A stretch of DNA of 64,000 nt from an uncultured Desulfobacterales bacterium (lineage in GTDB: Bacteria > Desulfobacterota > Desulfobacteria > Desulfobacterales > B30-G6). How positions within the stretch are numbered: position 1 is the stretch's first letter; each line of letters begins with the position of its first letter. Shown piece after piece: positions 644 through 56,272 of the stretch. The notes beneath the pieces were generated by a model. That model searched no databases, was not told the DNA's origin, and saw only the letters and a program-made list of their open reading frames with translations. Position numbers and translations under genes: made by a program. Where the stretch lies: NCBI GenBank assembly GCA_964452555.1, contig CAYVMI010000018.1, positions 32,329 through 96,328 on the forward strand, given 5' to 3'.

Positions 644-732
644 GGATTTTGTGTTTGGTATTTCATGTTTTGTGTTTCGTGGTACGGGTTTGTGTTATGA
701 GTCTTAGCACCCCAACGTCATAACCACTGATT

Positions 733-812
733 GTCGTTCCCGCGGAAGCGGGAAACCAGACAGAGCCTCTCGCTAAAAGCTTATCCTGGATCCCCGATTT
801 CTCGGGGATGAC
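733..812 (+). repeat. Dual-hairpin REP-like element, copy A
   Basis: gtcgTTCCCGCggaaGCGGGAAaccag ... cctgGATCCCCGatttCTCGGGGATgac; same two-hairpin layout as 4149..4234. Track ORF 663..902 is just its translation (WFPASAGTT, VIPEKSGIQ). Confidence 0.8.
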
Positions 813-1027
813 AACCGGAGACGGCTGGGATGCTGTAAGCCATGTCCTGCAACCCGAATCCCGGAACTCGTAACCCGGAACTTGAATCCTACACCCCTTC
901 AAACCTCCACCCCTACAACCCTTTATGAAAGCCTAATAGCCTAAATCTTCTGTCTCCTGTCTTCTGACTCCCCAGGCCACCATAACCCAGAGCCTGCCGA
1001 AGGGCGACGGCGGCTGACTCCTGAATT

Positions 1028-1474
1028 CTATCTTTTCGTCAACGTCTCCATCCCCTCCAGCGTATTCTCTATCTGCACCCGCGCCCACAGCAGACCGTCA
1101 TCCACCCCGGTAAAGTTGTCGTCATCGGCATCGGCATTGTCGCCGTCATAGCGCGCCAGAAAAACCAATAGGCGCCGCTCGGTACCGGCGGCGTCCGAAT
1201 AGGCCGCCACAATCACACCCGGCCCGCCGGCTGCGTCAGCCGCTGCCTGCAGTTCATCGAAGGGCTTGGCCAGGACTTCCTCCAGTTTCCCGGATATGCG
1301 ATAATGGTCGACCGCTCGGATTTCGTGGATATCACCGCCTTGGACACCCCCGAATACCGCGCTGATGGCCGGTATCAAAGTCAGAGCAATTAGTATCACC
1401 GCCACCAGCACTTCCACATAGGAAAATCCTTTTTCTATTTTTAACCAATTAAAATTATTTGAAAAAAAATTCAT
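1028..1474 (-). CDS. Minor pseudopilin (GspI/PilV-like, prepilin-type N-terminal domain)
   Basis: Internal start of track ORF 1028..1633: MNFFSNNFNWLKIEKG-FSYVEVLVAVILIALTLIPAI; ATG 1474..1472 overlaps upstream stop as ATGA. Confidence 0.75.
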   Translation of the reverse strand: MNFFSNNFNWLKIEKGFSYVEVLVAVILIALTLIPAISAVFGGVQGGDIHEIRAVDHYRISGKLEEVLAKPFDELQAAADAAGGPGVIVAAYSDAAGTERRLLVFLARYDGDNADADDDNFTGVDDGLLWARVQIENTLEGMETLTKR

Positions 1475-2019
1475 TGCACCGTAACCCTCCCGCTGATGCC
1501 GTGCAAGGTTACCACACGGGATATGGCCCCGGCTGAAAAAGTTATGTCCAGCTGGTTCACCAGTACGTCTGACGGATCGGCACACCAGGGGGTGCCGTTG
1601 GCATCGAAATACGTATTGCCGGCGACGCTGCAATTTCCACGAAATGAAATTGCACGGTTTACACTTTCAGAATAGGCAAACCTATGCGAAGCCAGATCGA
1701 TGTCGTAGAGATTTTTACTTAAAGGATGGTAAACGTCGTATATCGGCGTCCAGGGATTGGTGGTGGTGTCCAGACGAAATACGCGGATGCGGGTGACTTC
1801 CGCGCCCGCTATATTTCGAAACCCAAAGGGCGCCCCCTGCTGCATGGCCAGGCTGCGGGCATAGCGCATGCTCTGCGCAAATTCTTCGGCCGCCAGCTCC
1901 AACTTGGCGTGGCCGCCGACCGAAAAACTGGGGATCGCCAACATGGCGGCGAACCCCAGGATAGTAATCACCAGCAGCAGCTCAACCAGACTCAGACCAG
2001 CCTGTGCAGGCGCCTTCAT
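1471..2019 (-). CDS. GspH/FimT-family pseudopilin
   Basis: MKAPAQAG-LSLVELLLVITILGFAAMLAIPSF prepilin motif; 182 aa; in pilin gene run. Confidence 0.8.
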   Translation of the reverse strand: MKAPAQAGLSLVELLLVITILGFAAMLAIPSFSVGGHAKLELAAEEFAQSMRYARSLAMQQGAPFGFRNIAGAEVTRIRVFRLDTTTNPWTPIYDVYHPLSKNLYDIDLASHRFAYSESVNRAISFRGNCSVAGNTYFDANGTPWCADPSDVLVNQLDITFSAGAISRVVTLHGISGRVTVQ

Positions 2020-2024
2020 GCCAT

Positions 2025-2573
2025 TTACAAGGTGTCGTGGGCACCGTTGTCGGCGGCAATGAGCACACCGGTTACGGGATAAAATTTCCAGCCAAAATCC
2101 TGCCCAGCCGAACTTCTGACCGTAATGTCGGCCTCGTCAAAATCGGCCGTGACATCTGTTTTATTGTTATACGGGTTTGTGGGCAGGGTTTGTTTTTTCA
2201 GGTAGGGTCCGTAAATGAATGCCCCTCCCTTAGTGTCTGCGGTCTGACCATCCACGTCCGTATACCGAGTCAATTGGGGCACGATGGCCGCGATGGCTTC
2301 GGCATCCGAGGCCGTGGCCGCCCCGTCGGTATGTTTGGTGGATCCGGGATACTTGCTGTCATGCTGATGGTAATAGAGCTCGACGGCATTGCGCAAGGCG
2401 CTCAGGTTGGTTGACAGCGTGTTGAGTTTGGCATCCTCGGTCGAAACCGCCACCTGCGGAATGATGATCATGGCCAGAATACCCAGCACGATCACGACAA
2501 TCAACATCTCGATCAGGGTAAAACCGGACTGTTTCCGTAGCAATCTCAACCCCTTGTCTATGGACGTTTTCAT
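2025..2573 (-). CDS. Major pilin / GspG-like pseudopilin
   Basis: MKTSIDKGLRLLRKQSG-FTLIEMLIVVIVLGILAMIIIPQ; start moved to ATG 2573 which has AAGGAG 9 nt upstream. Confidence 0.85.
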   Translation of the reverse strand: MKTSIDKGLRLLRKQSGFTLIEMLIVVIVLGILAMIIIPQVAVSTEDAKLNTLSTNLSALRNAVELYYHQHDSKYPGSTKHTDGAATASDAEAIAAIVPQLTRYTDVDGQTADTKGGAFIYGPYLKKQTLPTNPYNNKTDVTADFDEADITVRSSAGQDFGWKFYPVTGVLIAADNGAHDTL

Positions 2574-2675
2574 GACTTGTGTCTCCTTACACATACAGGT
2601 TTTCTTCCTTAAATCTCTCTGTAAATATATATCGGCAGTTTATTGAAATCCTTTAGTAAAAAAGTTAAAGGGTGG

Positions 2676-2836
2676 GAAGCAGGAGTCAGAAAACAGCAGG
2701 CTGTAGGCTGAAGACTGTTAGGCTGTTTGGCGCCAGATGTTGACCCGTAATCCGAAATACAAACCCGAAACTCGCAACACACAACCCGATTCTGAATTCT
2801 GACTCCTGAATTCTGTCTTCTGACGCCTGTTTTCTG
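2676..2836. repeat. Low-complexity word-tile spacer with inverted words (caggagtcag / ctgactcctg; aaaacagcagg / cctgttttctg) plus aggct- and aacccg-type tiles
   Basis: Read directly; words and their reverse complements occur within 160 nt between gspF-like stop and pilin start. Confidence 0.7.
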
Positions 2837-2843
2837 TTTCGAA

Positions 2844-3995
2844 TCAATGCAAGGCTTGCGATAACTTGAACAATGGCAAAATAATCGAAGAAACTATCAC
2901 CCCCACAATCCCTCCCATCACGATCAAGGCAATCGGCTCGATCAGGGAGGCAAATTTCTTTAATTCCTGTTCGATCTCCATATCGTAAAACCGGACCAGC
3001 CGCATGAGCACCTCCGGCAGCTTACCCGCCTCTTCACCGATGGCCACCATCTGTTTCACGGTTTGAGGAATATAGGCGTACGTGGCGAAAGGCTGGGAAA
3101 ACCGCCCACCTTGATCGATATGCGTGCGGATACGCTCAACAAATTGACGGTAGTACTGATTCCAAATGGTGGGACGGGTTACGTCCATGGCTTCCAGCAG
3201 GGGTACATGGCTGTCCATGAGGTATCCCAGGGTTCTTAGCATTTCGCAGGTATATATCTTGTTCGCCAGACCGGATATGAGCGGACCGCTGATTAATACT
3301 TTGTCCAATATGCGCCGCCCCCAGGGGCTTTTGACAAACAGCATACCCCCAAAAGCAATTCCGATACTACCCAGGATGTAAACCCACCAGTACAACCGTA
3401 ACGAATCGCTGGCAGCCATGAGCAAACGTGTGGATAGGGGCAATAGGTCTTCCTTGCCTTCAAAAAATGCCGTAAACTTGGGCAGCACCGCCACCAGCAC
3501 AAATACCACCACGATCATACCAAACAGCATCAAGACCCCCGGATAGGTCAAGGCAGAGCGCAGTTGGGTCATAACGGCCTGCCGCTTTTCCTGCATCTCC
3601 ACCACCCGATCCAGAATCTTTTTAAGAAATCCGCCGGTCTCACCGGCCCGAATCATGCTGACGGTCTGTTGGTTGAATATCTTGGGGTGGCCCTGCATGG
3701 CTTCCGACAATTGACGCCCGGCCTCGATCCTCCCCGCCATATCCAGGATTGCCGCTCGAAACATTGGATTTTGAACCTCTTCGGCCACAGACTTCAAGGC
3801 CACTGTCAGAGGGGTGCCGATTTCAAGCATTAAGGCCAGCTGCGTGTTGAAAAACATCACCTCCTTGGCTGTGGCGTGCTTTTTAAACCGCTCCAGGAGA
3901 TCGCCCTGCGTAAACCCGATCTTTGGCTTCTTGATTTTAGAACCGTTTAGTGCGGCCGTATTCACGGCACCATTTGTATTAAAATTGAGAGCCAT
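2844..3995 (-). CDS. Type II secretion/type IV pilus platform protein (GspF/PilC family)
   Basis: 383 aa, duplicated GspF-type domain, three hydrophobic segments, typical ...MIRAGETGG... and ...MVAIGEEAGKL... motifs. Confidence 0.9.
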   Translation of the reverse strand: MALNFNTNGAVNTAALNGSKIKKPKIGFTQGDLLERFKKHATAKEVMFFNTQLALMLEIGTPLTVALKSVAEEVQNPMFRAAILDMAGRIEAGRQLSEAMQGHPKIFNQQTVSMIRAGETGGFLKKILDRVVEMQEKRQAVMTQLRSALTYPGVLMLFGMIVVVFVLVAVLPKFTAFFEGKEDLLPLSTRLLMAASDSLRLYWWVYILGSIGIAFGGMLFVKSPWGRRILDKVLISGPLISGLANKIYTCEMLRTLGYLMDSHVPLLEAMDVTRPTIWNQYYRQFVERIRTHIDQGGRFSQPFATYAYIPQTVKQMVAIGEEAGKLPEVLMRLVRFYDMEIEQELKKFASLIEPIALIVMGGIVGVIVSSIILPLFKLSQALH

Positions 3996-4148
3996 AATAC
4001 TACTTTAGCCTTTTAGGTATTTAGACTGTAGGCAGTAGGCGTTCAACCGCCGAAGAGCCTATTAATTCTGCTTAATGCTTCATTTGCCTTAAGCTATAAG
4101 CAACTGTGGCATTTGCCTTAGTGCTTAAAGCTGAACTCGCCCCTTCCT

Positions 4149-4234
4149 GTCATTCCCTCGGAAGAGGGAATCCAGTCAACACCGTCTGCTAATAGCTAAA
4201 GGCTTTTCTGGATCCCCGATTGCTCGGGGATGAC
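4149..4234 (+). repeat. Dual-hairpin REP-like element, copy B
   Basis: gtcATTCCCTCggaaGAGGGAATccag ... ctgGATCCCCGattgCTCGGGGATgac; the first stem differs from copy A by a compensatory pair (G-C to T-A). Confidence 0.85.
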
Positions 4235-4405
4235 ATCCGTATGTTGGGATGTTCGATGTTAAAGCAGTTTATGCTGGATACTGCTTTAGCTTTTTAGGTG
4301 TTTAGACTGTAGGCTGTAGGCGTTTAACCGCCTAACAGTCAAAAAGTCTTCAGCCTAACAGCCTTGACTCCTGAATTCTGTCTTCTGACTTCTGTCTCCT
4401 GTCTC

Positions 4406-4615
4406 CTAAACTAACGATCTCGCCTTCTTCACATCCCCCACCAGCTCGATGTTGCCGCAGTCCAGACACATAAAACCTTTTACAGCCAAGTCGGCTGTCT
4501 GCATCGCAAAAAAATTGACGCTATCCGGTCGAAAATATACCCTGCCGGATGATTGAGCCTTACCCGCGGCCATTTTTTTGCTGCCGCATCGCAAACAAGA
4601 TTTTTGATCGGTCAT
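4406..4615 (-). CDS. Small zinc-ribbon protein (CxxC ... CxxC), function unknown
   Basis: 69 aa; CLRCGS ... CLDCGN pairs; isolated between two repeat-filled spacers inside the pilus operon. Confidence 0.5.
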   Translation of the reverse strand: MTDQKSCLRCGSKKMAAGKAQSSGRVYFRPDSVNFFAMQTADLAVKGFMCLDCGNIELVGDVKKARSLV

Positions 4616-4835
4616 GGTTGTTGTCTCTTTTCCTTGGTTTTTATTAATGTCGTATTCTCATTCCCCATTTTATCGAAATGAAAAGTAAAGGCCAGGATGC
4701 CGGATGCTTGATCCTTGATGCTAGTTGCTGGATGCTGGTCAACCCGCAACCCAATTCCCGTAACCCTTCACACCTCCAAACCTACACCCTCCAACCCTCT
4801 CTAACAGCCTAACAGTCTTCAGCCTAATAGCCTGG

Positions 4836-6542
4836 TTAAATGTCCAACGACGACACCCGATGCACCTCCTCAATCGTGGTCTGGTGCTCGAGCACCTTTT
4901 GATACCCCGCCGTCTTAAGACCGCGATATCCGTTGGTGTTACAGTGCTTTCGGATCTCATCGATGGTGGGATTCTCCAGGATCAGGGTTTGCAAATCCGC
5001 ATCCATGGTCAAGAGTTCATGGATGCCGGTCCGGCCTTTGAATCCGGAGTCGTAGCATGCGCGGCAGCCTTCACCCCGATACAGCTTTTGACGCTTTTTA
5101 GCATCGATTCCCAACGCGGTCATTTCAACCTCCGAGGGGAAATAAGCCGCTTTGCACTCCGGGCATATGGTCCGCACCAGACGCTGGGACAGAGCCGCCA
5201 GCAGAGACGACGACAGCAGATAAGGCTCGATCCCCATCTCCAGCAGCCGCGTGATGGAGCTGGGGCTGTCATTGGTATGCAAGGTGGAAAGCACCAGATG
5301 ACCGGTCAGCGAAGCCTGAATTGCGATCTCGGCTGTCTCCCGGTCGCGGATCTCCCCCACCATAATCACGTCCGGGTCCTGCCGCAGGGCATGCCGGATA
5401 AAAGTGGCAAACTTGAGTCCGATGGCCGCATTGACCTGGTTTTGGTTGATATCGGCGATCTGGTATTCCACCGGATCTTCCACCGTGATGATATTGCGCT
5501 CGGGAGTGTTCAGCAGCGAAACTCCTGAATACAGGGTCGTGGTCTTGCCGCTGCCGGTGGGTCCGCATACCAGGATGAGACCATGGGAAGACCGCACAAG
5601 CGATTTAAATGTTTCCAACAAATCTTCGTCGAAACCCAGGCTGTTCAAATCCAGGATCGCCTGGCTGCGATCGAGGATCCGCATGACCACCTTTTCACCG
5701 TATACCCCCGGCATGGATGAAAAGCGCAGATCCACCACTTTGCCGTCCGCCACCACCTGGATACGACCATCCTGGGGCAGGCGTCTTTCGGCAATATTCA
5801 GCTTGGACATGACTTTCAGCCTGGAAACCACGGCCGGATGCAGCTCGATTTTTTGGGGGCGCTGTTCATACAACATACCGTCCACGCGCACCCGAATACG
5901 TAAGCGGTCTTCCTGGGGTTCGATGTGGATATCGCTGGCGCCGTCTCGTATGGCACGCAACAAAATCAAATTGGCGAGATTGACGATGGGGCTGTCCTCA
6001 GCCATTTCTGCCAGTTCAGCTATTTCAGCCTCGGAACGCCCCTCCACCACATCGATGCTGGATTCATCGGCGCTGGACATGAGTTCATCGATGCTGGCAT
6101 CTCCCTGATAGGCCTGGGGAATCGCCTCTAAAATATCTTCGGAACGACAGATGACCGGCTGAACCTCAAGATTGGTTATTTTGCGCACTTCATCAAAAAC
6201 ATTAAACCCATAGGGGTCCGATGTTGCCAGGGTGATCACTCCGTTGACCACAAACATGGGCAGAACCTGGTAATGGAGGGCTTTTTCCTTGGGTAGAATT
6301 TGGACGATCTTGGGATCCACCAGGCCTTTGCGCAGCCAGACATGCGGAATCCCCATCTGCTCACCCAGGGCCTTGGACAGTTCCTCCTTGGTTAAGATGC
6401 CCTCATCGATCAGCAGCTGTCCTAAGGGTTTGCCGGTTTCCTTTTGCAGACGCAATAAGCTGGTTAGTTTTTCCGGTTCAACCTTGCCGCTTTGAACCAG
6501 AATTTCCCCCAGCTTCCTTCTTTTTTTGATGATGCGCGTCAT
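4836..6542 (-). CDS. GspE/PilB/MshE-family secretion ATPase with N-terminal MshEN-type c-di-GMP-binding domain
   Basis: 568 aa; Walker A GPTGSGKTTT, Asp/His boxes, tetracysteine CPECK...CRAC; N-terminus carries two 24-residue MshEN-like motifs (see findings). Confidence 0.95.
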   Translation of the reverse strand: MTRIIKKRRKLGEILVQSGKVEPEKLTSLLRLQKETGKPLGQLLIDEGILTKEELSKALGEQMGIPHVWLRKGLVDPKIVQILPKEKALHYQVLPMFVVNGVITLATSDPYGFNVFDEVRKITNLEVQPVICRSEDILEAIPQAYQGDASIDELMSSADESSIDVVEGRSEAEIAELAEMAEDSPIVNLANLILLRAIRDGASDIHIEPQEDRLRIRVRVDGMLYEQRPQKIELHPAVVSRLKVMSKLNIAERRLPQDGRIQVVADGKVVDLRFSSMPGVYGEKVVMRILDRSQAILDLNSLGFDEDLLETFKSLVRSSHGLILVCGPTGSGKTTTLYSGVSLLNTPERNIITVEDPVEYQIADINQNQVNAAIGLKFATFIRHALRQDPDVIMVGEIRDRETAEIAIQASLTGHLVLSTLHTNDSPSSITRLLEMGIEPYLLSSSLLAALSQRLVRTICPECKAAYFPSEVEMTALGIDAKKRQKLYRGEGCRACYDSGFKGRTGIHELLTMDADLQTLILENPTIDEIRKHCNTNGYRGLKTAGYQKVLEHQTTIEEVHRVSSLDI

Positions 6543-6907
6543 GATCTCTTGTGGGCCAGGGCTTCGTTGATATCCTTGTAAACAAACAGTATGTTAATAA
6601 TGCGCGTGGCCAAAAGAATATCCCGACAGACTTCATTCAGGCCGGCGATTTTAAGGGCACCCCCATTCTGCATTAGATTATCATGGGTTTCCACCAGCAA
6701 CTCCAAAGCCGCGCTGTCCAGGTGATCCACCTTTTTTAAATCCAGGATGATTTCTGTATGGCCGGCGTATATTTTCTCCTTGATTTTTTTATCTAGGTTC
6801 TCACAATTTTCCCAGGTGATCGATTGCTTCAGGGCCAGAGCCGCACGCCCGTCGATATTAACGCTTTTGACGGAATCCCCCTCCTGAGCTTGTGGTTTAG
6901 TTGGCAT
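6539..6907 (-). CDS. STAS-domain protein (anti-sigma-factor-antagonist fold)
   Basis: Internal start of track ORF 6539..7252: MPTKPQ...ILDLKKVDHLDSAALELLVE...GGALKIAGLN; GGAGAGGTG SD upstream of ATG 6907; stop overlaps ATPase start (ATGA). Confidence 0.85.
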   Translation of the reverse strand: MPTKPQAQEGDSVKSVNIDGRAALALKQSITWENCENLDKKIKEKIYAGHTEIILDLKKVDHLDSAALELLVETHDNLMQNGGALKIAGLNEVCRDILLATRIINILFVYKDINEALAHKRS

Positions 6908-8417
6908 AAGACACCTCTCCCACCAGGTAGCCGGCCTCATCCACGATTTGGCTAAATACGGACACAATCTTGGGATCCAACTGACTGCCGGCCACTTCTT
7001 TAACGATAGACAAAGCTTTGTATAATGATTTGGCCGACCGGTAGGACCGGGTGGAACTGATGGCATCGAAAGTGTCGGCCACTGCGATAATTCGGGCTGA
7101 TAGGGGAATCTGCAGACGGGCCAGACCGCTTGGATATCCGTTGCCGTCATAACGTTCATGGTGATGCAGGATGCCGGGCAGAGACTCCACCAACTGTTCC
7201 ACCGGCTTGAGAATCTCAAATCCCTTGGCCGGGTGGTCTTTGACAACCTCAAACTCCTCCTCGGTCAATTTGCCGGGTTTGTTCAGAATGGTCTCCGGGA
7301 TACCGATTTTGCCGATATCGTGTAAAATTGAGGCCCAGCGAAGCGCCTCCAGTTCACCACCCTGCATACCCAATTTCCTCCCTATTTGCATGGAATACTG
7401 GGAAACGCGCTCAGAATGACCCCGGGTGTAAACGTCTTTAGCCTCGATGGCAAAGACCAGCGACTTGACCATGTTGATGATAAATACTTCCAGGTCCTGG
7501 TACAGGTTGGTGTTTGCAATCACTACACTTAACTGTTCAGCCAGAGAAACCAAAAGCTGCAATTCACCCTGGCGGAAAATTTCATTCATATTAAAGGATA
7601 CCAGCCCCAGCCAGCCATAGAATCCTTCTTCATGGTCGATCCGGACTGCCAGGAAACGGAACTCTGTCTGGGAGAATGATCGGTAGACCGGATTTGAACC
7701 GGATCGATTGACTATAAAATACTTGTCTCCGGTTGAGATAATCTCCTCGGGGATGGAATCAATCAGCCTGTGATAGAAACTCATATCTTCCCTTAGGTGA
7801 TCATCAAGGTTAGGTTGAGCAACCAGCGTATTGTATTCGGGACTATCGTTTAAGATAGCAAAGGCAGCATCTGAACGCAGGTTGATCAGCAAACTTTTGA
7901 TCAAGCTTTCCAGCATTGTGTTGGAAAATTTCAGCGTCTTGATCTGCGATGCGATTTTACCGTAAAGGAAAAGATCTTCAAAAGACTGGTCCAGCTCTTC
8001 GGCCAGGTCATTGACCTCTTCCCGCGCCTCCCAGCTTTCCTGAAGCAGCTTGGCCAAACTACCCAGAAAATTTTCCATCTCCATGGCATGTTGCCAAACA
8101 CGGGGGTCGTCAGATGCCTCCGTGGCCTGGGTACGGCTCTCATCCTCATAAGCGATCAAGGTTCCAAAGGGACCTTTTCCGTTGGACAATGGATACCCGC
8201 ACATGAATTGGCGGCCGTTATATAGGTCATGCTGATAGCGATTTTCCCTCAACACAATTTTAGACAAACCTTGAATCGCTTGGTTAAAGCTTGGATCCGT
8301 ATCATTCTGCTCCGGGTCGGGATACAGCATATGGCCGTTAAGATCCCATACCTGATAATGTAGTTGACTGATGGGTGTCAGATTTGTCAGAAATTCTTTC
8401 AGCTCGGTCAATTCCAT
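6897..8417 (-). CDS. HD-GYP c-di-GMP phosphodiesterase with N-terminal sensory (GAF-like) region
   Basis: HSERV...LHDIGKIGIP...HHERYDGNGYPSGL motifs. Confidence 0.9.
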   Translation of the reverse strand: MELTELKEFLTNLTPISQLHYQVWDLNGHMLYPDPEQNDTDPSFNQAIQGLSKIVLRENRYQHDLYNGRQFMCGYPLSNGKGPFGTLIAYEDESRTQATEASDDPRVWQHAMEMENFLGSLAKLLQESWEAREEVNDLAEELDQSFEDLFLYGKIASQIKTLKFSNTMLESLIKSLLINLRSDAAFAILNDSPEYNTLVAQPNLDDHLREDMSFYHRLIDSIPEEIISTGDKYFIVNRSGSNPVYRSFSQTEFRFLAVRIDHEEGFYGWLGLVSFNMNEIFRQGELQLLVSLAEQLSVVIANTNLYQDLEVFIINMVKSLVFAIEAKDVYTRGHSERVSQYSMQIGRKLGMQGGELEALRWASILHDIGKIGIPETILNKPGKLTEEEFEVVKDHPAKGFEILKPVEQLVESLPGILHHHERYDGNGYPSGLARLQIPLSARIIAVADTFDAISSTRSYRSAKSLYKALSIVKEVAGSQLDPKIVSVFSQIVDEAGYLVGEVSYAN

Positions 8418-42583: not shown

Positions 42584-42626
42584 GTACCCCCAGATTAGTA
42601 TATATTGTATATACGATATATATCAA

Positions 42627-46588: not shown

Positions 46589-46604
46589 ATTTTGTGTCCA
46601 ATCC

Positions 46605-47009
46605 CTATAGCCTTTTAGGGCTTAATCTGTTTGATATAATCCGGGCTGCAACGGCACCGATGAAACTTCCGACGGTATTGGCCAGCATATCGGCCAAGCT
46701 GAAGGTTCTGGAAGGGACAAAATATTGATGCACTTCGTCGCTGATACCATAGGCGCTCGAGGACAAGGCGCTAATGAGTATAAGCAAGATTGCAGTTCTA
46801 GGAATCCGAGTGGTTTGAAAAGCACGGTAAAACAAAAAACCCAGCAGGGCGTAAGCGCCGGCATGCATCAGTTTATCTGCATGCGGAAACGCCGGCAGGC
46901 TATCGGATGTCGGGAGAGACGATTGGATAAAAATGGCCAGGCAGTAGATGATGATGGGGAACCAGTAGAAAAGGAAAATTTTAGTACGTGGATTTAAAGG
47001 TTTTAGCAT
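46605..47009 (-). CDS. VanZ-family membrane protein
   Basis: DKLMHAGAYALLGFL ... SDEVHQYFVPSRTFSLADMLANTVG. Confidence 0.8.
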   Translation of the reverse strand: MLKPLNPRTKIFLFYWFPIIIYCLAIFIQSSLPTSDSLPAFPHADKLMHAGAYALLGFLFYRAFQTTRIPRTAILLILISALSSSAYGISDEVHQYFVPSRTFSLADMLANTVGSFIGAVAARIISNRLSPKRL

Positions 47010-47092
47010 GAAGGTTTGTAACTACCAGTTTATCTATCAACAACTTTGCAGCTCAACTGTATTAAATACATTTTCATCATAAGATATTTTCT

Positions 47093-47200
47093 AACATCGA
47101 ACATTCAACATCCAACACTGAACATCGAATGACTTTCTCGCTAATTGCCAATAGGTTCGATGTTCGATGTTGGAAGTTCGATGTTCAATGTTCGATTCGG
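47093..47200. repeat. Inverted word-tile arms, cgaacatccaaca family, locus 1
   Basis: aacatcgaacattcaacatccaacactgaacatcgaatg / ggttcgatgttcgatgttggaagttcgatgttcaatgttcgattcgg. Confidence 0.85.
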
Positions 47201-47234
47201 CCCTATCTTGATAAACACCTCGAATGAACATCCA

Positions 47235-47462
47235 TTAAAAGCCTGTTGTCGGTCTCCGCTTACCAAACTCCTTCTCGCAGGGCGCGTTCTTGGTAACATG
47301 TTTTTTCAGCGCACCGCACCACAGGGACTGAAAGGTGTGACAACTGCCATCCAATGCATCCATTTTGGCAAAATCCGCATGCTCACAGCGCAGATCGCAC
47401 CATTTGATACGATGGGTGGTTACGCCGGCGTTATCCTTTTTTTTAACTTCTGTCTTTCCCAT
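47235..47462 (-). CDS. Small cysteine-rich hypothetical protein
   Basis: 75 aa, coding-like codon usage, 5 Cys (WCDLRCEH, GSCHTF, LWCG, APCE); no clear SD. Confidence 0.45.
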   Translation of the reverse strand: MGKTEVKKKDNAGVTTHRIKWCDLRCEHADFAKMDALDGSCHTFQSLWCGALKKHVTKNAPCEKEFGKRRPTTGF

Positions 47463-47563
47463 AACTTACATAGCTTTTTAGGTGATTAGGCTGTTAGATT
47501 ATTTGGCGGTTTTCGGTTGGCAGCCTAACAGCCTAATAGTCTTCAGTCTAACAGCCTATTGAT

Positions 47564-49477: not shown

Positions 49478-49618
49478 TGGTCCACCTTGTACGTCGAAGA
49501 ATAAATAACTTGGGGTTAAAACCTTAACAATCCACGCCAACCGGCGTGAAAACTCTATTTGAGAATGGACCCAAGTTAGGTCAATAGGTGCAATGGGTCA
49601 AGAGCAAATTGAGGTGAT

Positions 49619-50758
49619 ATGCCCTTCAACATGAATCCAAAATATGAATTAATCGACACGCCGGAAGGTTTGGAGCGCCTCGTATGCAACCTCGGGGGGC
49701 TAAATGTAATGGCCGTGGATCTGGAAGCCGACTCCATGTATCATTTCCAGGATCAGGTGTGCCTTATTCAACTGGCAATAAATGGTAAAATTTATATTAT
49801 CGACCCCATCAAGCTTGGATCGATTGAGCTGCTCGAACCATATTTTCTCGACCCACGCATCCGCAAGATCTTCCATGGTGCTGATTATGACATTCGCTCG
49901 CTATTTAGAGATTTCGATATCGTCATTCATAATCTGTTTGACACGGAACTTGCCTGCAGGTTTTTAGGCATCCAGCAAAGTGGTCTGGATGCTGTGATCC
50001 AAACCTTTTTCCAGGTAAAACTGGAAAAAAAATACCAGAAGAAGGATTGGTCCAAGCGGCCCCTGCCGCCGGACATGATAAATTATGCTGCCAAGGATGT
50101 AGAGTATCTGCTTCAGCTTTCAGAGATCTTGGAGCAAAAACTAATCCAAAAAAATCGGCTCAGCTGGGTCGAGGAAGAGTGCCGGCTGCTCAGCAAAGTC
50201 CGCCCCAATACCAACCATGATGCGCCGCTGTTCCTGAATTTCCGAGGGGCGGGCAAGCTGAAACCCAGGGAGCTTGCCATCTTGGAGGAAGTATTGATCT
50301 GGCGCCGGGAAACCGCACGTAAGAAGGACCGACCGCTTTTCAAAATAATAGGGAATCACAATATTTTGAAGCTAGTCCACAAGCTGCCTCGAAGCAAAGA
50401 TGAATTGGTTGAAAGTAAAACCCTAAGTACCAAACAGCTTCACATGTTCGGCCACCAGTTGATAGAGGCCGTCGAACGAGGTCTCAATGCGCCGGAGGAT
50501 GATCTGCCGGTATATCCCCGAGGGCGGGCACCGCGTATTTCCGAAACCGCCTCTCGTAAAGTCAGCCGATTGAAAAACTGGAAAGAAGCTAAAGCTGAAA
50601 AACTGTCCATTGATCCGGCCTTGATCTTGAACAAAACACAAATCATGGAGATCGTAAAAACGAAGCCGGTTGACCTTCAGGATCTGAGTGACATCAATGG
50701 TATCAAGGCCTGGCAGGTACGAGAATTTGGTGAGGAGATTGTCAGGTGTCTGCAATAA
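49619..50758 (+). CDS. rnd: Ribonuclease D (DEDD 3'-5' exonuclease + HRDC)
   Basis: VAVDLEADS ... FHGADYDI ... YAAKDVEYL motifs. Confidence 0.85.
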   Translation: MPFNMNPKYELIDTPEGLERLVCNLGGLNVMAVDLEADSMYHFQDQVCLIQLAINGKIYIIDPIKLGSIELLEPYFLDPRIRKIFHGADYDIRSLFRDFDIVIHNLFDTELACRFLGIQQSGLDAVIQTFFQVKLEKKYQKKDWSKRPLPPDMINYAAKDVEYLLQLSEILEQKLIQKNRLSWVEEECRLLSKVRPNTNHDAPLFLNFRGAGKLKPRELAILEEVLIWRRETARKKDRPLFKIIGNHNILKLVHKLPRSKDELVESKTLSTKQLHMFGHQLIEAVERGLNAPEDDLPVYPRGRAPRISETASRKVSRLKNWKEAKAEKLSIDPALILNKTQIMEIVKTKPVDLQDLSDINGIKAWQVREFGEEIVRCLQ

Positions 50759-50768
50759 GGGCAGGGAT

Positions 50769-50862
50769 GGTGGGTTGAAGGGTTGAGATTTGGAGGGTTA
50801 GCCGAAAATGGAATTGAGTTGGCCCTACCCTAATACCCTCCACCCCTAATCACCCTAAACCC
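50769..50862. repeat. Inverted word-tile arms directly after the rnd stop
   Basis: ggtgggttgaagggttgagatttggagggttag / ctaccctaataccctccacccctaatcaccctaaaccc. Confidence 0.8.
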
Positions 50863-50920
50863 TATGGCCAATCCCATACTGAATCTATAAACTAGAAAAA
50901 TCGTTTAAAAATCAGATCAA

Positions 50921-52864
50921 ATGAAAAAAGTACACACCGTCTGCTCGCGTGACTGTCCGGATGCCTGCTCCTTGATTTTTGAATTAAATGCACAGCATCA
51001 GATCCATTCGGTTCACGCAGATTCCGACCACCCCCTTACCCGCGGAATCATCTGTCCCCGCAGCGCTCGCGATCGGGATCGTCTGCAAACCAATCGCATT
51101 GATGCCCCCTACTTGAAGGGATCCGCAGGATTCAAAAAAATCAGTTGGGCCCGCGCCCTTGATCTGGTTTCCCAAAAACTGGGCAAGACCTTGGCAGAAC
51201 AAGGGCCTCAGCAAATTCTCTACCTGAGTTATCCCGGCAATACCGGTATGCTCGCCAACACATATCCAAAACGGTTATGGAATGCCATCGGGGCTACTCA
51301 AACTGACAGGGCCCTGTGCAGCAAATCCGGTCATAGCGGCATTTCCCTTCATTACGGCGAAAGCTACGGTGCCAATCCGCTGGATATATCTGATATGGCC
51401 CTCGTGAATTTCTGGGGGCTTAATGCCGCCGTTAGTGCTGCTCATTATTGGCAGCTGGCTCGTCATGCACGCAAGTACAATCAAACCAAGATTGTGGTTG
51501 TGGATCCCATTGAAACGGTCAGCGCCCAAAAAGCAGACCTCTGGATTCGCCCTAATCCCCAAACCGATGTGGCCTTGGTTTATGGGGTTTTAAACCAACT
51601 CATCTCAGACGGCAGACATGATCAAGACTTTCTAGAAAAATGGACCACCGGATTTGAAGCTTTGCGGGCTGAGGCAGCCAAGTGGACGCCCGACAGGGTG
51701 AGATCCGTCACCGGGGTATCAATAGACGATCTTAAAGCATTGACCGAACTAGTTGATACCCATCGACCCAGCCTGACGATGATCGGTATCGGCTTGCAGC
51801 ATTGTGACAGTGGTGCAGACCAAGTCCGGGCGGTTGCTCTGCTACCTGCGGTATTGGGAATTCACCGCGGCTTTTTTTATGGTAACGGCAGTGCCTATGA
51901 CTTTGATGCCGCCCGCATCTCGGGCACATCTTTGGCCCATCAGACATCGCCAAAAATTTCTCAGGTAGCCCTGGCTGAATCCATAGCCCATGGAGAGTTT
52001 TCAGTGGTCTACGTGAGTTGTATGAACCCTGCCATGACCATCCCGAATCAAAACCTATTCCGGCGCGGTTTAGCTCGCCCAGATCTAACCTTGATAGTCC
52101 ATGAGACCCATTGGAGCGAAACCGCTCAACTGGCCGATCTGGTTCTGCCGGCGCCGACCTTTCTGGAAAAAGAGGACATCGTTATCCCCGACAGCCATAA
52201 CCGTGTACAATTCAGTCACCAGATCCTTCCGCCTGTGACCGACAGTCGCCACGAAATTTATGTCATGCAGGAAATTGCCAAACGGCTTGATCTCAATGAA
52301 CCCTGGCTGTATGAAGATGCGCTGTCGGTTGTCACTGAAATCCTGGCAGATGCCTTTGAAGACGGCCAGACAAAGGATCTGATAGACGGTAAGCGGCTCA
52401 AGCTTCGCCGCAAGCCCCTTGACCATTACGCCACGCCGTCGGGTCGCCTGGAGTTTTATGCCTATTCTGCCAAACGGCACGGCCATGCACCCCTGCCGGT
52501 TCAAAAAAACCTTTTAAGCGAAACGGACACATTCAGATTAATGGCGAGCTCGGATTCAAAATATACTCACACCCAGTTTCAGGAAGTATACGGCAATATT
52601 CCGGCAGTTGTGCATATCAATAGAGAAGATGCCACCCGATTTCAGATTTCGAACGGAGAGGAAGTTATAATCGAAAACCGAGAGGGTCGACTCAAGCTTG
52701 AAGCCGTCATATCTGATATCTTGCCAGCCGGCGTGGTGTGGTGCCCCAAAGAAGCCGCCGACCTTGATGGCGCGCCCCAGAACTGCCTGATCAGCAGCCG
52801 GCCGCAATCCCTCGGCAAAGGTCCGCGATTTAATTCAACGCGGGTGAAACTTCGTAAAGCTTAA
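50921..52864 (+). CDS. Cytoplasmic molybdopterin oxidoreductase, substrate unknown
   Basis: N-terminal [4Fe-4S] motif CSRDCPDAC; 647 aa; no signal or Tat motif. Confidence 0.8.
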   Translation: MKKVHTVCSRDCPDACSLIFELNAQHQIHSVHADSDHPLTRGIICPRSARDRDRLQTNRIDAPYLKGSAGFKKISWARALDLVSQKLGKTLAEQGPQQILYLSYPGNTGMLANTYPKRLWNAIGATQTDRALCSKSGHSGISLHYGESYGANPLDISDMALVNFWGLNAAVSAAHYWQLARHARKYNQTKIVVVDPIETVSAQKADLWIRPNPQTDVALVYGVLNQLISDGRHDQDFLEKWTTGFEALRAEAAKWTPDRVRSVTGVSIDDLKALTELVDTHRPSLTMIGIGLQHCDSGADQVRAVALLPAVLGIHRGFFYGNGSAYDFDAARISGTSLAHQTSPKISQVALAESIAHGEFSVVYVSCMNPAMTIPNQNLFRRGLARPDLTLIVHETHWSETAQLADLVLPAPTFLEKEDIVIPDSHNRVQFSHQILPPVTDSRHEIYVMQEIAKRLDLNEPWLYEDALSVVTEILADAFEDGQTKDLIDGKRLKLRRKPLDHYATPSGRLEFYAYSAKRHGHAPLPVQKNLLSETDTFRLMASSDSKYTHTQFQEVYGNIPAVVHINREDATRFQISNGEEVIIENREGRLKLEAVISDILPAGVVWCPKEAADLDGAPQNCLISSRPQSLGKGPRFNSTRVKLRKA

Positions 52865-52882
52865 GATCCATGCGGCCTGGAC

Positions 52883-53896
52883 TCAATCTCTAAATAGTTC
52901 TAAATACGCTCCATAGCCTTCCTTTTCCAAATCTTCCTTGGGAATAAATCGAAGCGCAGCCGAATTGATACAGTAACGCTGCCCGGTTGGTGCGGGGCCA
53001 TCCGGAAAGACATGACCCAGGTGAGAATCACCATGGCGGCTGCGTACTTCCGTACGAACGGTGAAGAGCTTGCAGTCTTCTTTCTCAACCAGATATTGGC
53101 GATCCAGGGGACGTGTAAAACTGGGCCAACCCGTACCGGAGTCAAACTTGTCTGTGGAGCTAAAGAGCGGTTCACCCGAAGCCACATCCACATAGATGCC
53201 TTCCCGTTTATTATCCCAGTATGCGTTCCGAAAAGGGGGTTCGGTGGCGTCCTGACGGATCACCTGATACTGATCCTCAGTCAAACGTTCACGTAACTCG
53301 TCCTCTGACGGCCGCTTGTATTTAGATTCTTCCGGCGAATCAGGCCGGCCCGTTTTGCTTACCTGCCAAATGGCCTGCAAAAATTGGTCGCGGCCGGAAC
53401 CCTGGCGGTAACGGGCATAGTGCGCTGGGTTCTTATGATAATAGTTTTGATGGTAATCCTCGGCAGCATAAAATGTCGAAAATGGCACAATTTCGGTTGC
53501 AATGGGCTTAGCATACACATCCGATTCTTCCAGATCTTGTCGCGATTTTTCAGCTATCTTCTGCTGTTCTTCAGAATGTGTAAAAATCACAGTTCGGTAC
53601 TGGGGCCCGCGGTCTACAAATTGCCCGTCGGCATCAGTGGGATCCACTGAGCGCCAGAATGCATCCAATAAGTCTTTATAAGTCACCTGGCGGGAGTCAT
53701 ATTGGACTTGAATTGCTTCCACATGACCGGAAATACCGCTGGCCACATCCTGATAGGTCGGATCCGGCATGCGTCCACCGGTGTAACCTGAGGTCACTGA
53801 TTGAACACCCTTGATTTTCTTAAAATCCGCCTCAATACACCAGAAACAGCCGCCAGCAAAGGTTGCCACTTCCATTTGTCCGGTATTAATTGCCAT
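52883..53896 (-). CDS. msrAB: Bifunctional methionine sulfoxide reductase MsrA-MsrB fusion
   Basis: GGCFWC (MsrA) and GWPSF ... RYCINS (MsrB). Confidence 0.9.
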
Positions 53897-54199
53897 ATTA
53901 AAATTCCTTAATATTTTCTAAATGTTATAAATTCTTTTTTCTTGTTAGATCACATATCACGCCGAAATCTCTTTGAATAAGGGCAGAATCGTAACAATTT
54001 AAAATCTTAGATTAATTATGCCCTAACTACAGTTAAGCATGCCCCGGTTGCTTGTCAAAACAGGAAGGCAATGTTGCCATTTTTACTTGCATTCTGATTT
54101 GGCTGCACTAGGTTATATCATGTTTACAAATCGCAACCATAGTATAACCTACTGAAATCAATTGTTAATTTTTTTTCTTTTTTAGAAGGAGGTTAAAAA

Positions 54200-54928
54200 A
54201 TGAAAAAGAATTCTATCTATCTGATCTTACTGGCTTGTCTTATTTTGCCATCAATGGCGATTGCAGAGGAAAGCCAATGGCAGGATGAGGCCGAACTGTC
54301 TTATGTCAGCACGGGCGGTAATACCGAGGTAACCAGTTTATCCGGTAAAAACAAACTTACCTACCAGTTCACGGAAAACTTCAAAGGCCAGTGGGACGTC
54401 AGTGCCCTATACGGTGAAACAGAAGATGTAAAAACTGCAGAGCGTTATGCAACCGAAGTTCGCCTGGACTATAATTTTACGGATAGGATTTATTTAGCCG
54501 GCATCGGTGGTTGGTTGCAAGATGAGTTTGCCGGGATTGAGCAACGTCTGTATCTAGGACCTGCCGTGGGCTATAAAATTCTCACCGGTCCCAAACAAAT
54601 ATTGAGCGCTGAAGGTGGTATTGACTATGTTACTGAAGAATATACCAATGACGAAGATGCCAACTTCATGCGTGGGCGTGCTTTCGGGAGCTACGAATTT
54701 ATACTGACCGAAAAAAGCAAGTTCACCCAAACCCTTGAATTGCTATATGATTTTGAAGACAGCGACAATTACAACGTCAATTCGGTTTCAGCCTTGATCA
54801 CGTCACTCAGCGATACATTTTCGATCAAGACCAGCTATGAAATTCACTACGACAACGAACCTGTTCCGGATACCCTGGAGGAAACCGACACGATCCTCTC
54901 TGTAGCCTTGATCGTCAACTTCAAGTAA
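54200..54928 (+). CDS. DUF481-family outer-membrane protein (YdiY-like)
   Basis: Signal peptide, then WQDEAELSYVSTGGNTE, typical of DUF481. Confidence 0.75.
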   Translation: MKKNSIYLILLACLILPSMAIAEESQWQDEAELSYVSTGGNTEVTSLSGKNKLTYQFTENFKGQWDVSALYGETEDVKTAERYATEVRLDYNFTDRIYLAGIGGWLQDEFAGIEQRLYLGPAVGYKILTGPKQILSAEGGIDYVTEEYTNDEDANFMRGRAFGSYEFILTEKSKFTQTLELLYDFEDSDNYNVNSVSALITSLSDTFSIKTSYEIHYDNEPVPDTLEETDTILSVALIVNFK

Positions 54929-54938
54929 GGAGAATAAA

Positions 54939-55916
54939 ATGGCCAAAGCCATCAAACTCTATCAGAACGGCGGACCGGAAGTTTTAAAATGGGAGGATCA
55001 TGATCCTGGTCCGCCGGGACCTGGTGAGGCACGCATTCGCCATCACGCTGTGGGTCTTAATTTTATTGATGTATACCATCGCACCGGTCTGTATCCTCTG
55101 CCTGCTCTGCCGGCCATTCCCGGTATGGAAGGTGCCGGGGTAGTGGAATCCGTCGGGGAAGGCGTAAGCACGGTTGCAGAAGGCGACCGGATTGCCTATG
55201 CCAGCTTACCTACCGGCGCCTATGCTCAGGTTCGCTGCATACCCGCTGATCGGCTCGTAAAAATTCCGGCGGAAATATCCTTCGATACGGCTGCCGGCAT
55301 GATGCTCAAAGGTATGACGGCGCGCTACCTCATTCGGGGTTGCTACCCGGTAACCGCTTCGGATACAATCCTCGTTCACGCCGCCTCCGGCGGGGTCGGA
55401 TCGATTGTATGCCAGTGGGCCAAACATATCGGTGCCACAGTCATCGGCACTGTGGGTTCTTCTCACAAGGCTGATCTGGCGCGATCCAACGGGTGCGACC
55501 ACCCCATTCTGTACTCCCGGGAGGATTTTGTTGAAAAAGTCCGTGAAATTACCACCGGCAAAGGTGTCGATGTGGTGTATGATTCTGTGGGACAGGCAAC
55601 TTTCCTGCAGTCGCTGGACTGCCTGCGCCCCCTTGGAACCATGGTAAGCTTCGGGCAATCTTCAGGGTCGGTTCCGCCCTTTGAATTAGGGCTCTTGGCA
55701 GCCAAGGGCTCGCTCTTTCTGACACGACCGAGCCTTATGACTTATACGGAAAATCAACAAGACCTTGTGGCCCACGCTGAGGATTTAATCGATGTGGTTC
55801 AACGGGGGGCGGTTAAAATCGATATCGGCCAAACCTATGAGCTTGCCGAGGCAGCCACAGCACATCGCGACCTGGAGGGGCGTAAGACCACCGGATCGAC
55901 CATCTTGATCCCTTAG
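54939..55916 (+). CDS. qor: NADPH:quinone oxidoreductase
   Basis: AVGLNFIDVYHRTGLYP ... PGMEGAGVV ... AASGGVGS. Confidence 0.9.
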   Translation: MAKAIKLYQNGGPEVLKWEDHDPGPPGPGEARIRHHAVGLNFIDVYHRTGLYPLPALPAIPGMEGAGVVESVGEGVSTVAEGDRIAYASLPTGAYAQVRCIPADRLVKIPAEISFDTAAGMMLKGMTARYLIRGCYPVTASDTILVHAASGGVGSIVCQWAKHIGATVIGTVGSSHKADLARSNGCDHPILYSREDFVEKVREITTGKGVDVVYDSVGQATFLQSLDCLRPLGTMVSFGQSSGSVPPFELGLLAAKGSLFLTRPSLMTYTENQQDLVAHAEDLIDVVQRGAVKIDIGQTYELAEAATAHRDLEGRKTTGSTILIP

Positions 55917-56071
55917 ATCAAATAAAACTTACTGCGAATATCGAATTATGAATTTCGATTTCATGAATTACGAAGGATGTTGTCCGTAAAATTAGTACGG
56001 ACAGTCAGGATCAAGTCCTGATTAAAAGTTGTCACTATTTAAGCTTAAAACAGTCATTCTTATTTGCCTCA

Positions 56072-56219
56072 AAATGAACATCGAACATCCAACGTCCAAC
56101 ACCCAACGTCGATTTGTGTTTGTCAGCTAATTGTATTCAGCATTTGTGGGCTTTCAGCCATGAGCAAAGAGCTACATTTCGATGTTCAGTGTTCGATGTT
56201 CGATGTTGGACGTTCATTT
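56072..56219. repeat. Inverted word-tile arms, cgaacatccaaca family, locus 2 (nested inside outer arms 55935..55975 / 56245..56272)
   Basis: aaatgaacatcgaacatccaacgtccaacacccaacgtcgat / atttcgatgttcagtgttcgatgttcgatgttggacgttcattt. Confidence 0.85.
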
Positions 56220-56272
56220 GTTACCGTCATTCAACATTTCCTGTTCAGCATTCGATATTCAAATCGATACGG

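Follow-up and report, generated by a model that had tools for sequence, protein, structure and literature searches.

Reports of an excess of tandem heptamers between bacterial genes date from 1990-2007, and the excess has no accepted function. As cited by Rehm et al., 2015 (PMC4692102), the excess was reported in 2007 and attributed to the footprint of DNA polymerase (Mrazek 2007), and an earlier report described three tandem heptanucleotides in Calothrix PCC7601. In Geobacter metallireducens, curated intergenic sites of three classes (4x GTTGCTYN, 3x TCTCCGTS[Y], and 5x MTYCTGA) lie mostly in opposite-strand pairs at variable distance; the two opposite-strand sites of class 3 are 75-115 bp apart, some sites belong to two classes in a mosaic-like manner, and binding of IHF/HU was offered as a guess (Aklujkar 2009, PMC2700814, Figures S3-S5). 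GGGAATC arrays of Xanthomonas form 70-75 convergent plus/minus-strand pairs, and Nostoc carries GGGGA(C/T)T; the Xanthomonas repeats are strongly non-coding, scarce between divergent genes, and kept in position with varied sequence among species, and they form G-quadruplexes (G4) in vitro with no detectable regulatory effect (PMC4692102). TAACTGA repeats of Beggiatoaceae (169 direct, 1 indirect) lie just upstream of start codons (MacGregor 2015, PMC4679880). No later functional study of heptamer arrays was found in the literature, and a search with tile strings gave only beta-globin noise. Here, a 64,000-nt stretch of Desulfobacterales chromosomal DNA (contig CAYVMI010000018.1; the window) was analyzed, in which 13 intergenic spacers are mosaics of dispersed, multi-copy repeat modules built from short heptamer or octamer arrays (tiles). 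Judged from sequence, these arrays belong to the class already described and still unexplained, of which the window holds an unusually rich example in a new lineage. The initial annotation of the window knew of no function for such an architecture, which is correct, but the architecture itself had been published (PMC2700814, PMC4692102).

Array families were labeled W1 (AGGCTGT), W1rc (ACAGCCT), W2 (AACCCGA), W3 (MTYCTGA), W4 (GGATGCT/GGTTGCT), W5 (CCCTACA), and W6 (AACATCG). W3 is the same heptamer as G. metallireducens class 3 and has a 28-mer in common with it, ATTCTGAATTCTGACTCCTGAATTCTGT (2789-2816, identical to site Gmet_I301A); because the vocabulary is small (four unit variants), the common 28-mer is no proof of transfer. 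W4 (GGTTGCTGGATGCT) resembles class 1. The window differs from G. metallireducens in its lineage, in having more word families, and in that many arrays are unpaired and collinear. Like the Xanthomonas and Nostoc repeats, its heptamers are non-coding, form convergent pairs, and are rare in divergent gaps; those genomes have a single G4-forming family each, whereas the window has at least eight families, mostly not G4-competent and in fixed order with non-tile modules. Tracts of three to four G per unit are a trait of the Xanthomonas/Nostoc sub-type, not of heptameric simple sequence repeats (SSRs) generally, and the window shows the head-to-tail 7-nt units and strong non-coding bias of the intergenic heptameric SSR class, as well as the placement of its G-rich strand, which lies on the coding strand past genes. 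The heptamers of Calothrix and Beggiatoaceae comprise several families per genome, intergenic and near the ends of open reading frames (ORFs), with S1, Csp, and CsrA as proposed binders; in the window, unlike the TAACTGA sets, inverted pairs and a position just past stop codons are common.

Repetitive extragenic palindromes (REPs), bacterial interspersed mosaic elements (BIMEs), and REP doublets (REPINs) are extragenic, multi-copy, hairpin-forming mosaics of alternating orientation that lie between cistrons or at 3′ ends. Each REP unit consists of one imperfect palindrome of 35-40 nt, and REPs are tied to RAYT transposases. The window resembles them in its extragenic multi-copy hairpin mosaics, in a module order kept across five spacers with modules between co-directional genes, and in one non-tile repeat, E1, which has the form of a REPIN-like inverted doublet. 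It differs in its tandem heptamer arrays, and no RAYT (Y1) transposase was seen among the window ORFs scanned with Pfam. Tile arrays were rejected as REP units, as they are tandem heptamers and not single palindromes, and only E1 has the doublet form. E1 (about 95 nt) consists of two inverted copies of an approximately 27-nt palindromic unit, GTCATYCCC-N8-GGGRATCCAG, with fold z-scores of -4 to -5 (here and below, RNA fold versus dinucleotide-shuffle controls, both strands). Its ATTCCC-N8-GGGAAT form recalls what we take to be the form of the Neisseria dRS3 repeat.

The mosaics were recognized as follows. The 13 spacers, which are gaps between long ORFs (boundaries first given as 2574, 21990, and 24600 lie at 2595, 21824, and 24859), all contain degenerate tandem arrays with a unit of 7 or 8 bases. 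Tandem Repeats Finder (TRF) returned 62 rows, nearly all within these spacers and with periods of 7-8 or 14-16; at least one array with a period of 6-9 or 12-17 falls in each interval, in agreement with the low-complexity tiles initially described there. Autocorrelation of intergenic DNA was highest at lag 7 (0.316 versus about 0.26) and rose again at 14 and 21, while coding DNA showed only period 3. A stringent detector, which required at least 11/14 matches at lag 7 or at least 13/16 at lag 8, flagged 659 of 10,771 intergenic nt versus 4 of 53,229 coding nt; in shuffled spacers it flagged 6.5 ± 12 nt (maximum 48). The tile words listed in the initial annotation are also real: their density in intergenic DNA is 2- to 11-fold that in genes, or they do not occur in genes at all. 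Arrays hold 3-9 copies of degenerate heptamers or octamers, with at least eight heptamer families in the window making up about 11% of intergenic bases. By TRF, a two-unit repeat of 14-16 nt often matches better than the 7-nt unit (22419-22456, 14 nt, 95%; 24471-24498, 14 nt, 100%; units of 14, 16, and 21 nt were seen), which points to an origin by slippage because higher-order units of 12-16 nt that outmatch the 7-nt unit are its usual signature. CRISPR arrays were ruled out, as the units are contiguous and without spacers.

Four Logan contigs from other runs (SRR24302418, SRR24302411, SRR8146440) were 100% identical to 2698-4172, 18885-22200, 19987-21995, and 38621-56100 and reproduced spacers 20879-21178, 47010-47234, 47463-47563, and 50759-50880, and in part 2574-2843 and 3996-4405. 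These contigs end within tile arrays or within dispersed repeats of other kinds. Because independent contigs are identical and break in arrays or dispersed repeats, the sequence is taken to be real and multi-copy, and the possibility of an assembly artefact, raised in the initial annotation, does not apply to the covered spacers. In practice, arrays of this kind break short-read assemblies and create spurious ORF extensions, the latter because in the TCAGGAG family all frames of the G-rich strand are free of stop codons.

By alignment and blastn, the families follow one order on a single strand: W4 > W2 > (W5) > (W1rc) > W3 > (70-nt non-tile unit). This order is kept in spacers 644, 2595, 4616, and 20879 and appears twice, on the opposite strand, in spacer 21824-22633. 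Non-tile repeats are interleaved with the tiles, namely E1 (four copies), the W1 hairpin unit, and two W6 hairpins with part of the loop in common, and multi-copy modules at unrelated loci are 75%-94% identical with their non-tile flanks included. The words had been thought to be permuted within arms according to a free grammar; they are instead tandem heptamers and octamers in arrays that make up ordered, dispersed modules. The inverted relation of the two spacers flanking tetR was borne out by blastn, 20904-20964 matching the reverse complement of 22568-22628 and 20998-21050 that of 22301-22353. The W3 pattern has seven matches in the window, all on the + strand, against 0.6 expected. One W3 pair (2680-2697 and 2789-2837) lies on opposite strands, and the W3 arrays at 945, 1008, 4365, and 21129 have no reverse-complement W3 partner in their spacer. 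The features of the spacers are as follows (MFE, minimum free energy in kcal/mol; unstranded, no strand assigned).

652-686 (+): GT-rich heptamer array TGTTTGG/TGTGTTT, adjoining the start codon of a pilin-like ORF ending at 643 (TRF, detector).
732-832 (+): E1 copy 1, an approximately 95-nt non-tile double hairpin, REPIN-like (blastn, alignment; z -4.0/-4.6).
854-932 (+): W2 then W5 arrays, C-rich on + (845-922: C=35, G=8) (TRF, blastn).
945-971 (+): W3 array (TRF, detector).
957-1025 (+): non-tile unit of 70 nt that matches 22341-22410, reverse-complemented, at 81% identity (blastn).
1008-1030 (+): W3 array over the stop codon of ORF 1028-1633 (-) (pattern match).
2680-2735 (+): reverse-complement W3 (caggagtcag) and W1 arrays, the G-rich 5′ arm of the spacer (TRF, blastn).
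2749-2840 (+): W2 and W3 arrays up to the gspF stop, including the 28-mer.
3997-4057 (+): W1 hairpin unit copy A, 88.5% identical to 4278-4338 (blastn).
4086-4251 (+): E1 copy 2 with flanks, element at 4148-4251 (blastn, alignment, fold).
4278-4366 (unstranded): W1 hairpin unit copy B, homologous to 47471-47557 (MFE -26.7/-27.4, z -4.9/-4.1).
4365-4405 (+): W3 array abutting the stop of ORF 4406-4615 (-), 88% identical to 2800-2840.
4695-4738 (+): W4 array with a 14-nt higher-order unit (TRF, detector, blastn).
4740-4833 (+): collinear W2-W5-W1rc tract up to the gspE stop, unstructured (z about +1).
16380-16545 (unstranded): hairpin ctaagg...ccttag with octamer array CTTGAATC in the 3′ arm (MFE -65/-62, z -6.8/-3.8).
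20898-20940 (+): W1 array just upstream of the ribosome-binding site of the acyl-CoA dehydrogenase gene (TRF, blastn).
21015-21050 (+): W4 array, 86% identical to 4703-4738.
21054-21178 (+): W2 and W3-like arrays reaching the tetR stop (21091-21168: C=35, G=9).
22032-22087 (-): W2 array of the minus-strand module (blastn).
22130-22258 (-): E1 copy 3 (blastn, alignment).
22280-22465 (-): W4, 70-nt unit, W3, and W2-like arrays, usual order on the opposite strand (TRF, alignment, blastn).
22472-22575 (-): E1 copy 4 (blastn, alignment).
22601-22637 (+): W1rc array abutting the lysK stop (TRF, blastn).
24297-24422 (unstranded): ATCGCT/ATCGGG array and an exact (CGATAC)x8.7 array, a complementary pair (z -2.8/-5.7).
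24468-24590 (unstranded): GTTTTAA/CCTAAAA hairpin, 44-nt arms 84% complementary (z -7.3/-7.9).
33246-33275 (+): GGGTTNA array with a G4 motif, beginning 4 nt past the stop of ORF 32613-33242 (+) (TRF).
33580-33620 (+): CCCTNCA array, the complement of 33246-33275, abutting the stop of a convergent fdh-type gene (TRF).
47085-47200 (unstranded): W6 hairpin, 40-nt arms 83% complementary, C/A-rich arm first (z about -7).
47470-47563 (unstranded): W1 hairpin filling the spacer between thrS and a small ORF (z -4.7/-3.2).
50759-50870 (unstranded): GGGTTGA array (G4 motif) from the first base past the rnd stop, with a CCCTAAN partner array (TRF).
55936-55974 (+): 14-nt AT-rich array GAATTTCGAATTCAT x2.7 (TRF).
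56068-56222 (unstranded): W6 hairpin aaatgaac...gttcattt with 78% complementarity between its 46-nt arms (z -5.4/-7.9); its homology to the 47.1-kb W6 copy takes in part of the loop (blastn).

Pairing was assessed by requiring that the match of an array to a partner within 350 nt beat 99/100 shuffles. An inverted partner was found at p ≤ 0.01 for 15/33 intergenic arrays and a direct partner for 4, so the statement that nearly every tile has a reverse-complement partner was overstated. True hairpins form in eight places: 4296-4366, 16380-16545, 24290-24425, 24468-24590, 33243-33627, 47085-47200, 47470-47563, and 56068-56222. Their MFE is -24 to -65 kcal/mol (-116/-141 for the whole 33243-33627 spacer), with z of -4.7 to -7.9 on the best strand and -2.8 to -7.9 over both strands. 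Anchored arm ends are present as first described, with ctaagg...ccttag within 16380-16545 and aaatgaac...gttcattt at 56072/56219. In contrast, tile tracts in spacers 644, 4616, 20879, and 21990 are unpaired and collinear; the mosaics 840-1027, 4690-4835, 21010-21178, and 22290-22470 fold no better than shuffled sequence (z -1.5 to +1.3) and show extreme strand asymmetry of G and C. Tile tracts make up the top C>G windows of the whole 64 kb, and its most C-rich, G-poor 78-nt window is 4740-4817 (C=38, G=4). The initial picture of modular hairpins is thus half right.

Orientation was examined in the window and in a follow-up sample of about 300 further loci and contigs. Complementary pairs place the G-rich arm 5′ and the C-rich arm 3′ in 72 versus 10 cases (13 ambiguous), an arrangement that reads alike on both strands. 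The same polarity was seen at 29 versus 6 in non-bait families and at 23 versus 0 in MTYCTGA family pairs, 23/63 metagenome-locus arrays of that family being paired. It persists at 10 versus 1 in HIP1-rich loci, which are probably cyanobacterial. Array starts peak at 0 ± 15 nt from a stop codon, and arrays that lie no more than 80 nt past a stop have their G-rich strand in the ORF sense in 118 versus 27 cases (61 versus 13 in non-bait families, 23 versus 9 in unbaited loci, and 11 versus 2 by direct reading in the window). Tiles occur in 1/6 divergent spacers versus 12/22 tandem or convergent spacers of the window, and of the 51 hairpins across all loci for which both neighboring genes were called, 5 fall in divergent gaps. 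In tandem-gene hairpins, the sense-strand fold is the stabler in 21 versus 12 (p = 0.03). Because longest-ORF calling swallows stop-free G-strand arrays, statements on arrays upstream of starts, among them that such arrays are C-rich, are unreliable and were not used; the bias appears as an excess of arrays called within coding sequence (101 versus 5), and array orientation between co-directional ORFs was likewise not used as evidence. Two simple testable rules follow, that the G-rich arm comes first on both strands and that the G-rich strand is sense directly after stops, and both span many word families, phage contigs, and cyanobacteria-like contigs. They make a descriptive oddity experimentally approachable in the tractable G. 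metallireducens and Xanthomonas. Two further accounts of orientation were rejected. Replication-strand bias is not the driver, as arrays after the + genes ending at 33242 and 50758 are G-rich on + while the GC skew of the whole window is negative. A G-rich left half and C-rich right half in every spacer is true of tile-bearing spacers only (GC skew 16/28, p = 0.55).

Array density was 0.33 per kb in the window, 0.085 in 56 Desulfobacterales loci, and 0.03 in Veillonella/Selenomonas-type controls. Relatives at the thrS region carry like arrays, often as nested inverted pairs (L052, L034, L005, L002). In orthologous thrS spacers, a comparison of the kind proposed in the initial annotation, a G/T-rich tract or hairpin lies directly after the thrS stop in 8/9 relatives having a spacer, with different words each time; several other relatives have no spacer downstream of thrS. 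A metagenome scan for four MTYCTGA units returned at least 120 stretches in contigs of 38%-66% GC, and a viral-contig scan for MTYCTGA-type arrays returned 104. These arrays are adjoined by many other heptamer families, and the vocabulary across genomes is very diverse. One viral contig (L220, IMGVR_UViG_3300014656_000076) carries at 1186-7237 at least seven long GAGTCAG/GAGCCAG/GAAGATA (TCAGGAG-type) arrays, all in gene sense, which fill stop-to-start gaps and place AGGAG every 7 nt upstream of starts.

As a tentative explanation, we favor a role like that of REPs and BIMEs, in which paired elements would act as 3′ or intercistronic RNA hairpins with their orientation set by transcript tolerance. 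Arrays would arise and grow by replication slippage and would spread by copying and inverted duplication, and the copies that persist would be those that, on the transcript of the upstream gene, fall in the 3′ untranslated region or between cistrons and have a tolerated orientation. As RNA 3′ hairpins, paired arrays may stall exonucleases and/or RNA polymerase and insulate neighboring cistrons; unpaired tracts would provide a C-poor tail on sense RNA and a C-rich unstructured leader on antisense RNA. The role is favored because the gene ends concerned lack canonical terminators, sense folds are stabler in the 21 versus 12 comparison above, and hairpin clusters no more than 80 nt from stops have been described as termination units without a U-tract (Gupta & Pal 2021, PMC8355165). 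Those hairpins are generic and predicted and, unlike the window arrays, are neither repeat-built nor multi-copy. A terminator scan found no canonical hairpin with T-run after thrS, gspE, rnd, tetR, or lysK, no tile hairpin was reported in the canonical scan (G+C-rich stem 5-20 bp, loop 3-8 nt, T-run), and terminator-like sites in the window overall are at chance level. The only convincing canonical intrinsic terminator of the window is at 33353-33384; it is bidirectional, and runs of A and T border its 14-bp stem.

Several results weigh against a REP/BIME-like role. The test for selection on RNA was not significant (G.U pairs, 39 in sense versus 27 in antisense, p = 0.18), 47470-47563 and 16380-16545 fold better on the antisense strand, about half of the arrays are unpaired and unstructured, and the tile hairpins lack T-runs. 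The terminator at 33353-33384 sits between the two tile arms of spacer 33243-33627, so these arms would rarely be on one RNA. The module block of 21824-22633 runs opposite in strand to the genes that flank it, the two W6 hairpins are exceptions to the polarity within the window, and no effect of the Xanthomonas repeats on gene regulation was found (Rehm 2015, PMC4692102).

It is possible, though not probable, that the modules are selfish or neutral repeat DNA of no benefit to the cell, with arrays born by slippage and spread by a MITE (miniature inverted-repeat transposable element)- or REPIN-like process or by gene conversion, the orientation rules then reflecting mere removal of harmful insertions. 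The 75%-94% identical modules at unrelated loci, including the four E1 copies, the 70-nt unit, and the approximately 230-nt repeat described below, fit this equally well, and the reading is also in line with the breaks of assemblies at arrays, the higher-order repeat structure, the nonsignificant G.U test, the other families or empty gaps at orthologous thrS spacers, and the diversity of vocabulary across genomes; the heptamer excess has also been attributed to the polymerase footprint (Mrazek 2007, as cited in PMC4692102). Yet no transposase was found by Pfam scan among the ORFs of the 64-kb window, and by eye no target-site duplication or defined terminal repeats were seen around the copies of the W6 and W1 hairpins. 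Such strong rules of position and strand require selective filtering by way of gene expression, arrays of MTYCTGA are present in contigs with a GC fraction of 0.38-0.66 and in viral contigs, and the arrays are identical in three independent read sets and so not visibly hypervariable.

A broader reading takes heptad tracts to be widespread orientation-coded transcript punctuation, running from Desulfobacterota and Geobacter to cyanobacteria-like genomes and phages; as a whole, we consider it unlikely. The G-rich strand would be read as part of the upstream gene's RNA, and the unit would be the footprint of a general single-strand binder (an OB-fold/cold-shock protein, S1, CsrA, or the anti-Shine-Dalgarno tail of the ribosome). 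UCAGGAG/CUCCUGA arms would mimic Shine-Dalgarno and anti-Shine-Dalgarno sequences, and a pairing partner would switch binding on or off. Three-frame stops (TGA every 7 nt), Shine-Dalgarno mimicry, and CsrA-like CAGGAG were each rejected as a general cause, since they apply to the W3 family only.

Distinctly unlikely, in our estimate, is that the tracts are signals for Rho. The C-rich, G-poor unstructured strand would serve as a rut-like Rho loading tract, so that antisense RNA entering a gene's 3′ end would be terminated, and tracts within operons would be kept C-poor in sense or masked by a G-rich arm transcribed first. In line with this, the top C>G 78-nt windows are tiles antisense to the upstream gene (4740-4817, C38/G4; 845-922, 35/8; 21091-21168, 35/9; 50721-50798 on the minus strand, 35/4), the C-rich tracts are unstructured, the G-first order never exposes a C arm, and canonical terminators are no commoner than chance. 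A single block is C-rich in sense; it lies between lysK and tetR, and tetR has a strong promoter match of its own (21826-21854). Against it, the G-first polarity persists in the HIP1-rich, probably cyanobacterial, loci, and to our knowledge cyanobacteria lack Rho; avoidance of Rho is thereby weakened as the sole cause of polarity. Moreover, viral contigs show the same orientation, and Rho binding is not known to be related to a spacing of 7 nt.

Binding at the level of DNA, with the arrays as half-sites for nucleoid-associated or global regulators (IHF/HU, or gyrase/IHF as in BIMEs) and paired arrays bridged by a looping oligomer, is here judged improbable; such a role, with IHF/HU, was proposed for the Geobacter sites (Aklujkar 2009, PMC2700814). 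The convergent arrangement is fixed (23/23 W3 pairs), as that of oriented half-sites would be, three heptamers make 21 bp or two helical turns, and the same word with a common 28-mer is found in two distant lineages. However, dozens of unrelated heptamer families obey one polarity, which disfavors binding by one protein and favors a physico-chemical or expression-linked rule, and arrays avoid divergent promoter spacers both in the window and in Xanthomonas (Rehm 2015, PMC4692102).

Regulation of transcription or translation by a G4 or i-motif formed from GGGNNNN heptamers is very improbable. The window has five canonical G4 motifs, all in W2/W5-type tile arrays, three of them in the sense strand directly past a stop codon (33248, 50759, 4743), and GGGAATC forms a G4 in vitro, but most families (AGGCTGT, TCAGRAK, GGATGCT, CGATGTT, GGTTTTA, GGTATC) have no G3 tract and so no G4-forming unit, and no regulatory effect was detected for GGGAATC itself (PMC4692102). 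An assembly or low-complexity artefact, for which the ends of short-read contigs inside arrays could be cited, can be dismissed for the covered spacers given 100% identity of four Logan contigs from three other runs over six tile spacers (two in part) and like arrays in about 300 unrelated contigs.

One further repeat, of about 230 nt, occurs at 14328-14553 and 18817-19045 (73%-81% identity, with a 130-nt core at about 90%). It lies directly 3′ of the etfA and acyl-CoA dehydrogenase stops, opens with a small GTTTTAG/CTAAAAC hairpin, and has no Rfam match; it could be a 3′-untranslated-region RNA element or another dispersed repeat.

The gene content of the window is housekeeping, and the gene names used in the initial annotation are correct. 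Intergenic DNA totals 10,771/64,000 nt and coding DNA 53,229 nt. The window encodes a type II/IV secretion-pilus cluster (T2SSE, T2SSF, N_methyl pilins), class I LysRS, a TetR regulator with an acyl-CoA dehydrogenase, ETF, Hdr-like proteins, ThrS, RNase D, and a probable selenocysteine formate-dehydrogenase-type gene. The closest species representatives, all of them Desulfobacterales metagenome-assembled genomes, share no more than 78% identity with this ThrS, and exact-protein look-ups for close relatives returned the same strain only. A search for tRNA and tmRNA found none in the window, and Rfam 15 gave no window match at gathering score; at Rfam E ≤ 1 the tiles gave nothing, and the 24.47-kb hairpin gave chance miRNA-like matches only.

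A separate promoter, at the border of the 810-nt mosaic spacer, probably serves the tetR gene (-), because the best sigma-70-like match of the window (21826-21854, TTGACA-17-TAAAAT, 11/12) lies directly upstream of that gene. ORFs 35263-36420 (-) and 33628-35214 (-) both match Molybdopterin/Fe4S4 domains and are separated by a TGA, directly after which a sub-threshold SECIS_3 match was found at 35210-35268 (-) (45.8 bits versus a gathering score of 63, E = 2.7e-7); the two most likely form one selenocysteine-containing formate-dehydrogenase-type gene. Beside thrS, the small Cys-rich ORF 47235-47462 (-) (75 aa, motif ...NAGVTT..I.WCDLRC...) has no Pfam match and is conserved directly downstream of thrS in many Desulfobacterales (L002, L005, L007, L015, L017, L026, L077). 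At 46546-46997 (+), two small genes (60 and 89 aa) are called on an identical Logan contig, and the longest ORF is one of 134 aa at 46605-47009 (-); because these disagree on strand, the annotation beside tile spacer 47010-47234 is uncertain.

Three other repeats were observed. Three direct copies of a 23-nt unit with complementary ends (GTTTGC...GCAAAC) lie at 24719-24787, 70 nt upstream of ORF 24860-25345, and look like an operator. An inverted repeat at 58930-58964 and 59018-59052 (arms of 35 nt with 86% complementarity) spans the aldehyde dehydrogenase start codon at 59007 and could block access to the site of translation initiation. The 1-kb spacer 61691-62703 holds, at 61770-61803, 3.1 exact copies of an 11-nt unit, CTTCTCGACCA.

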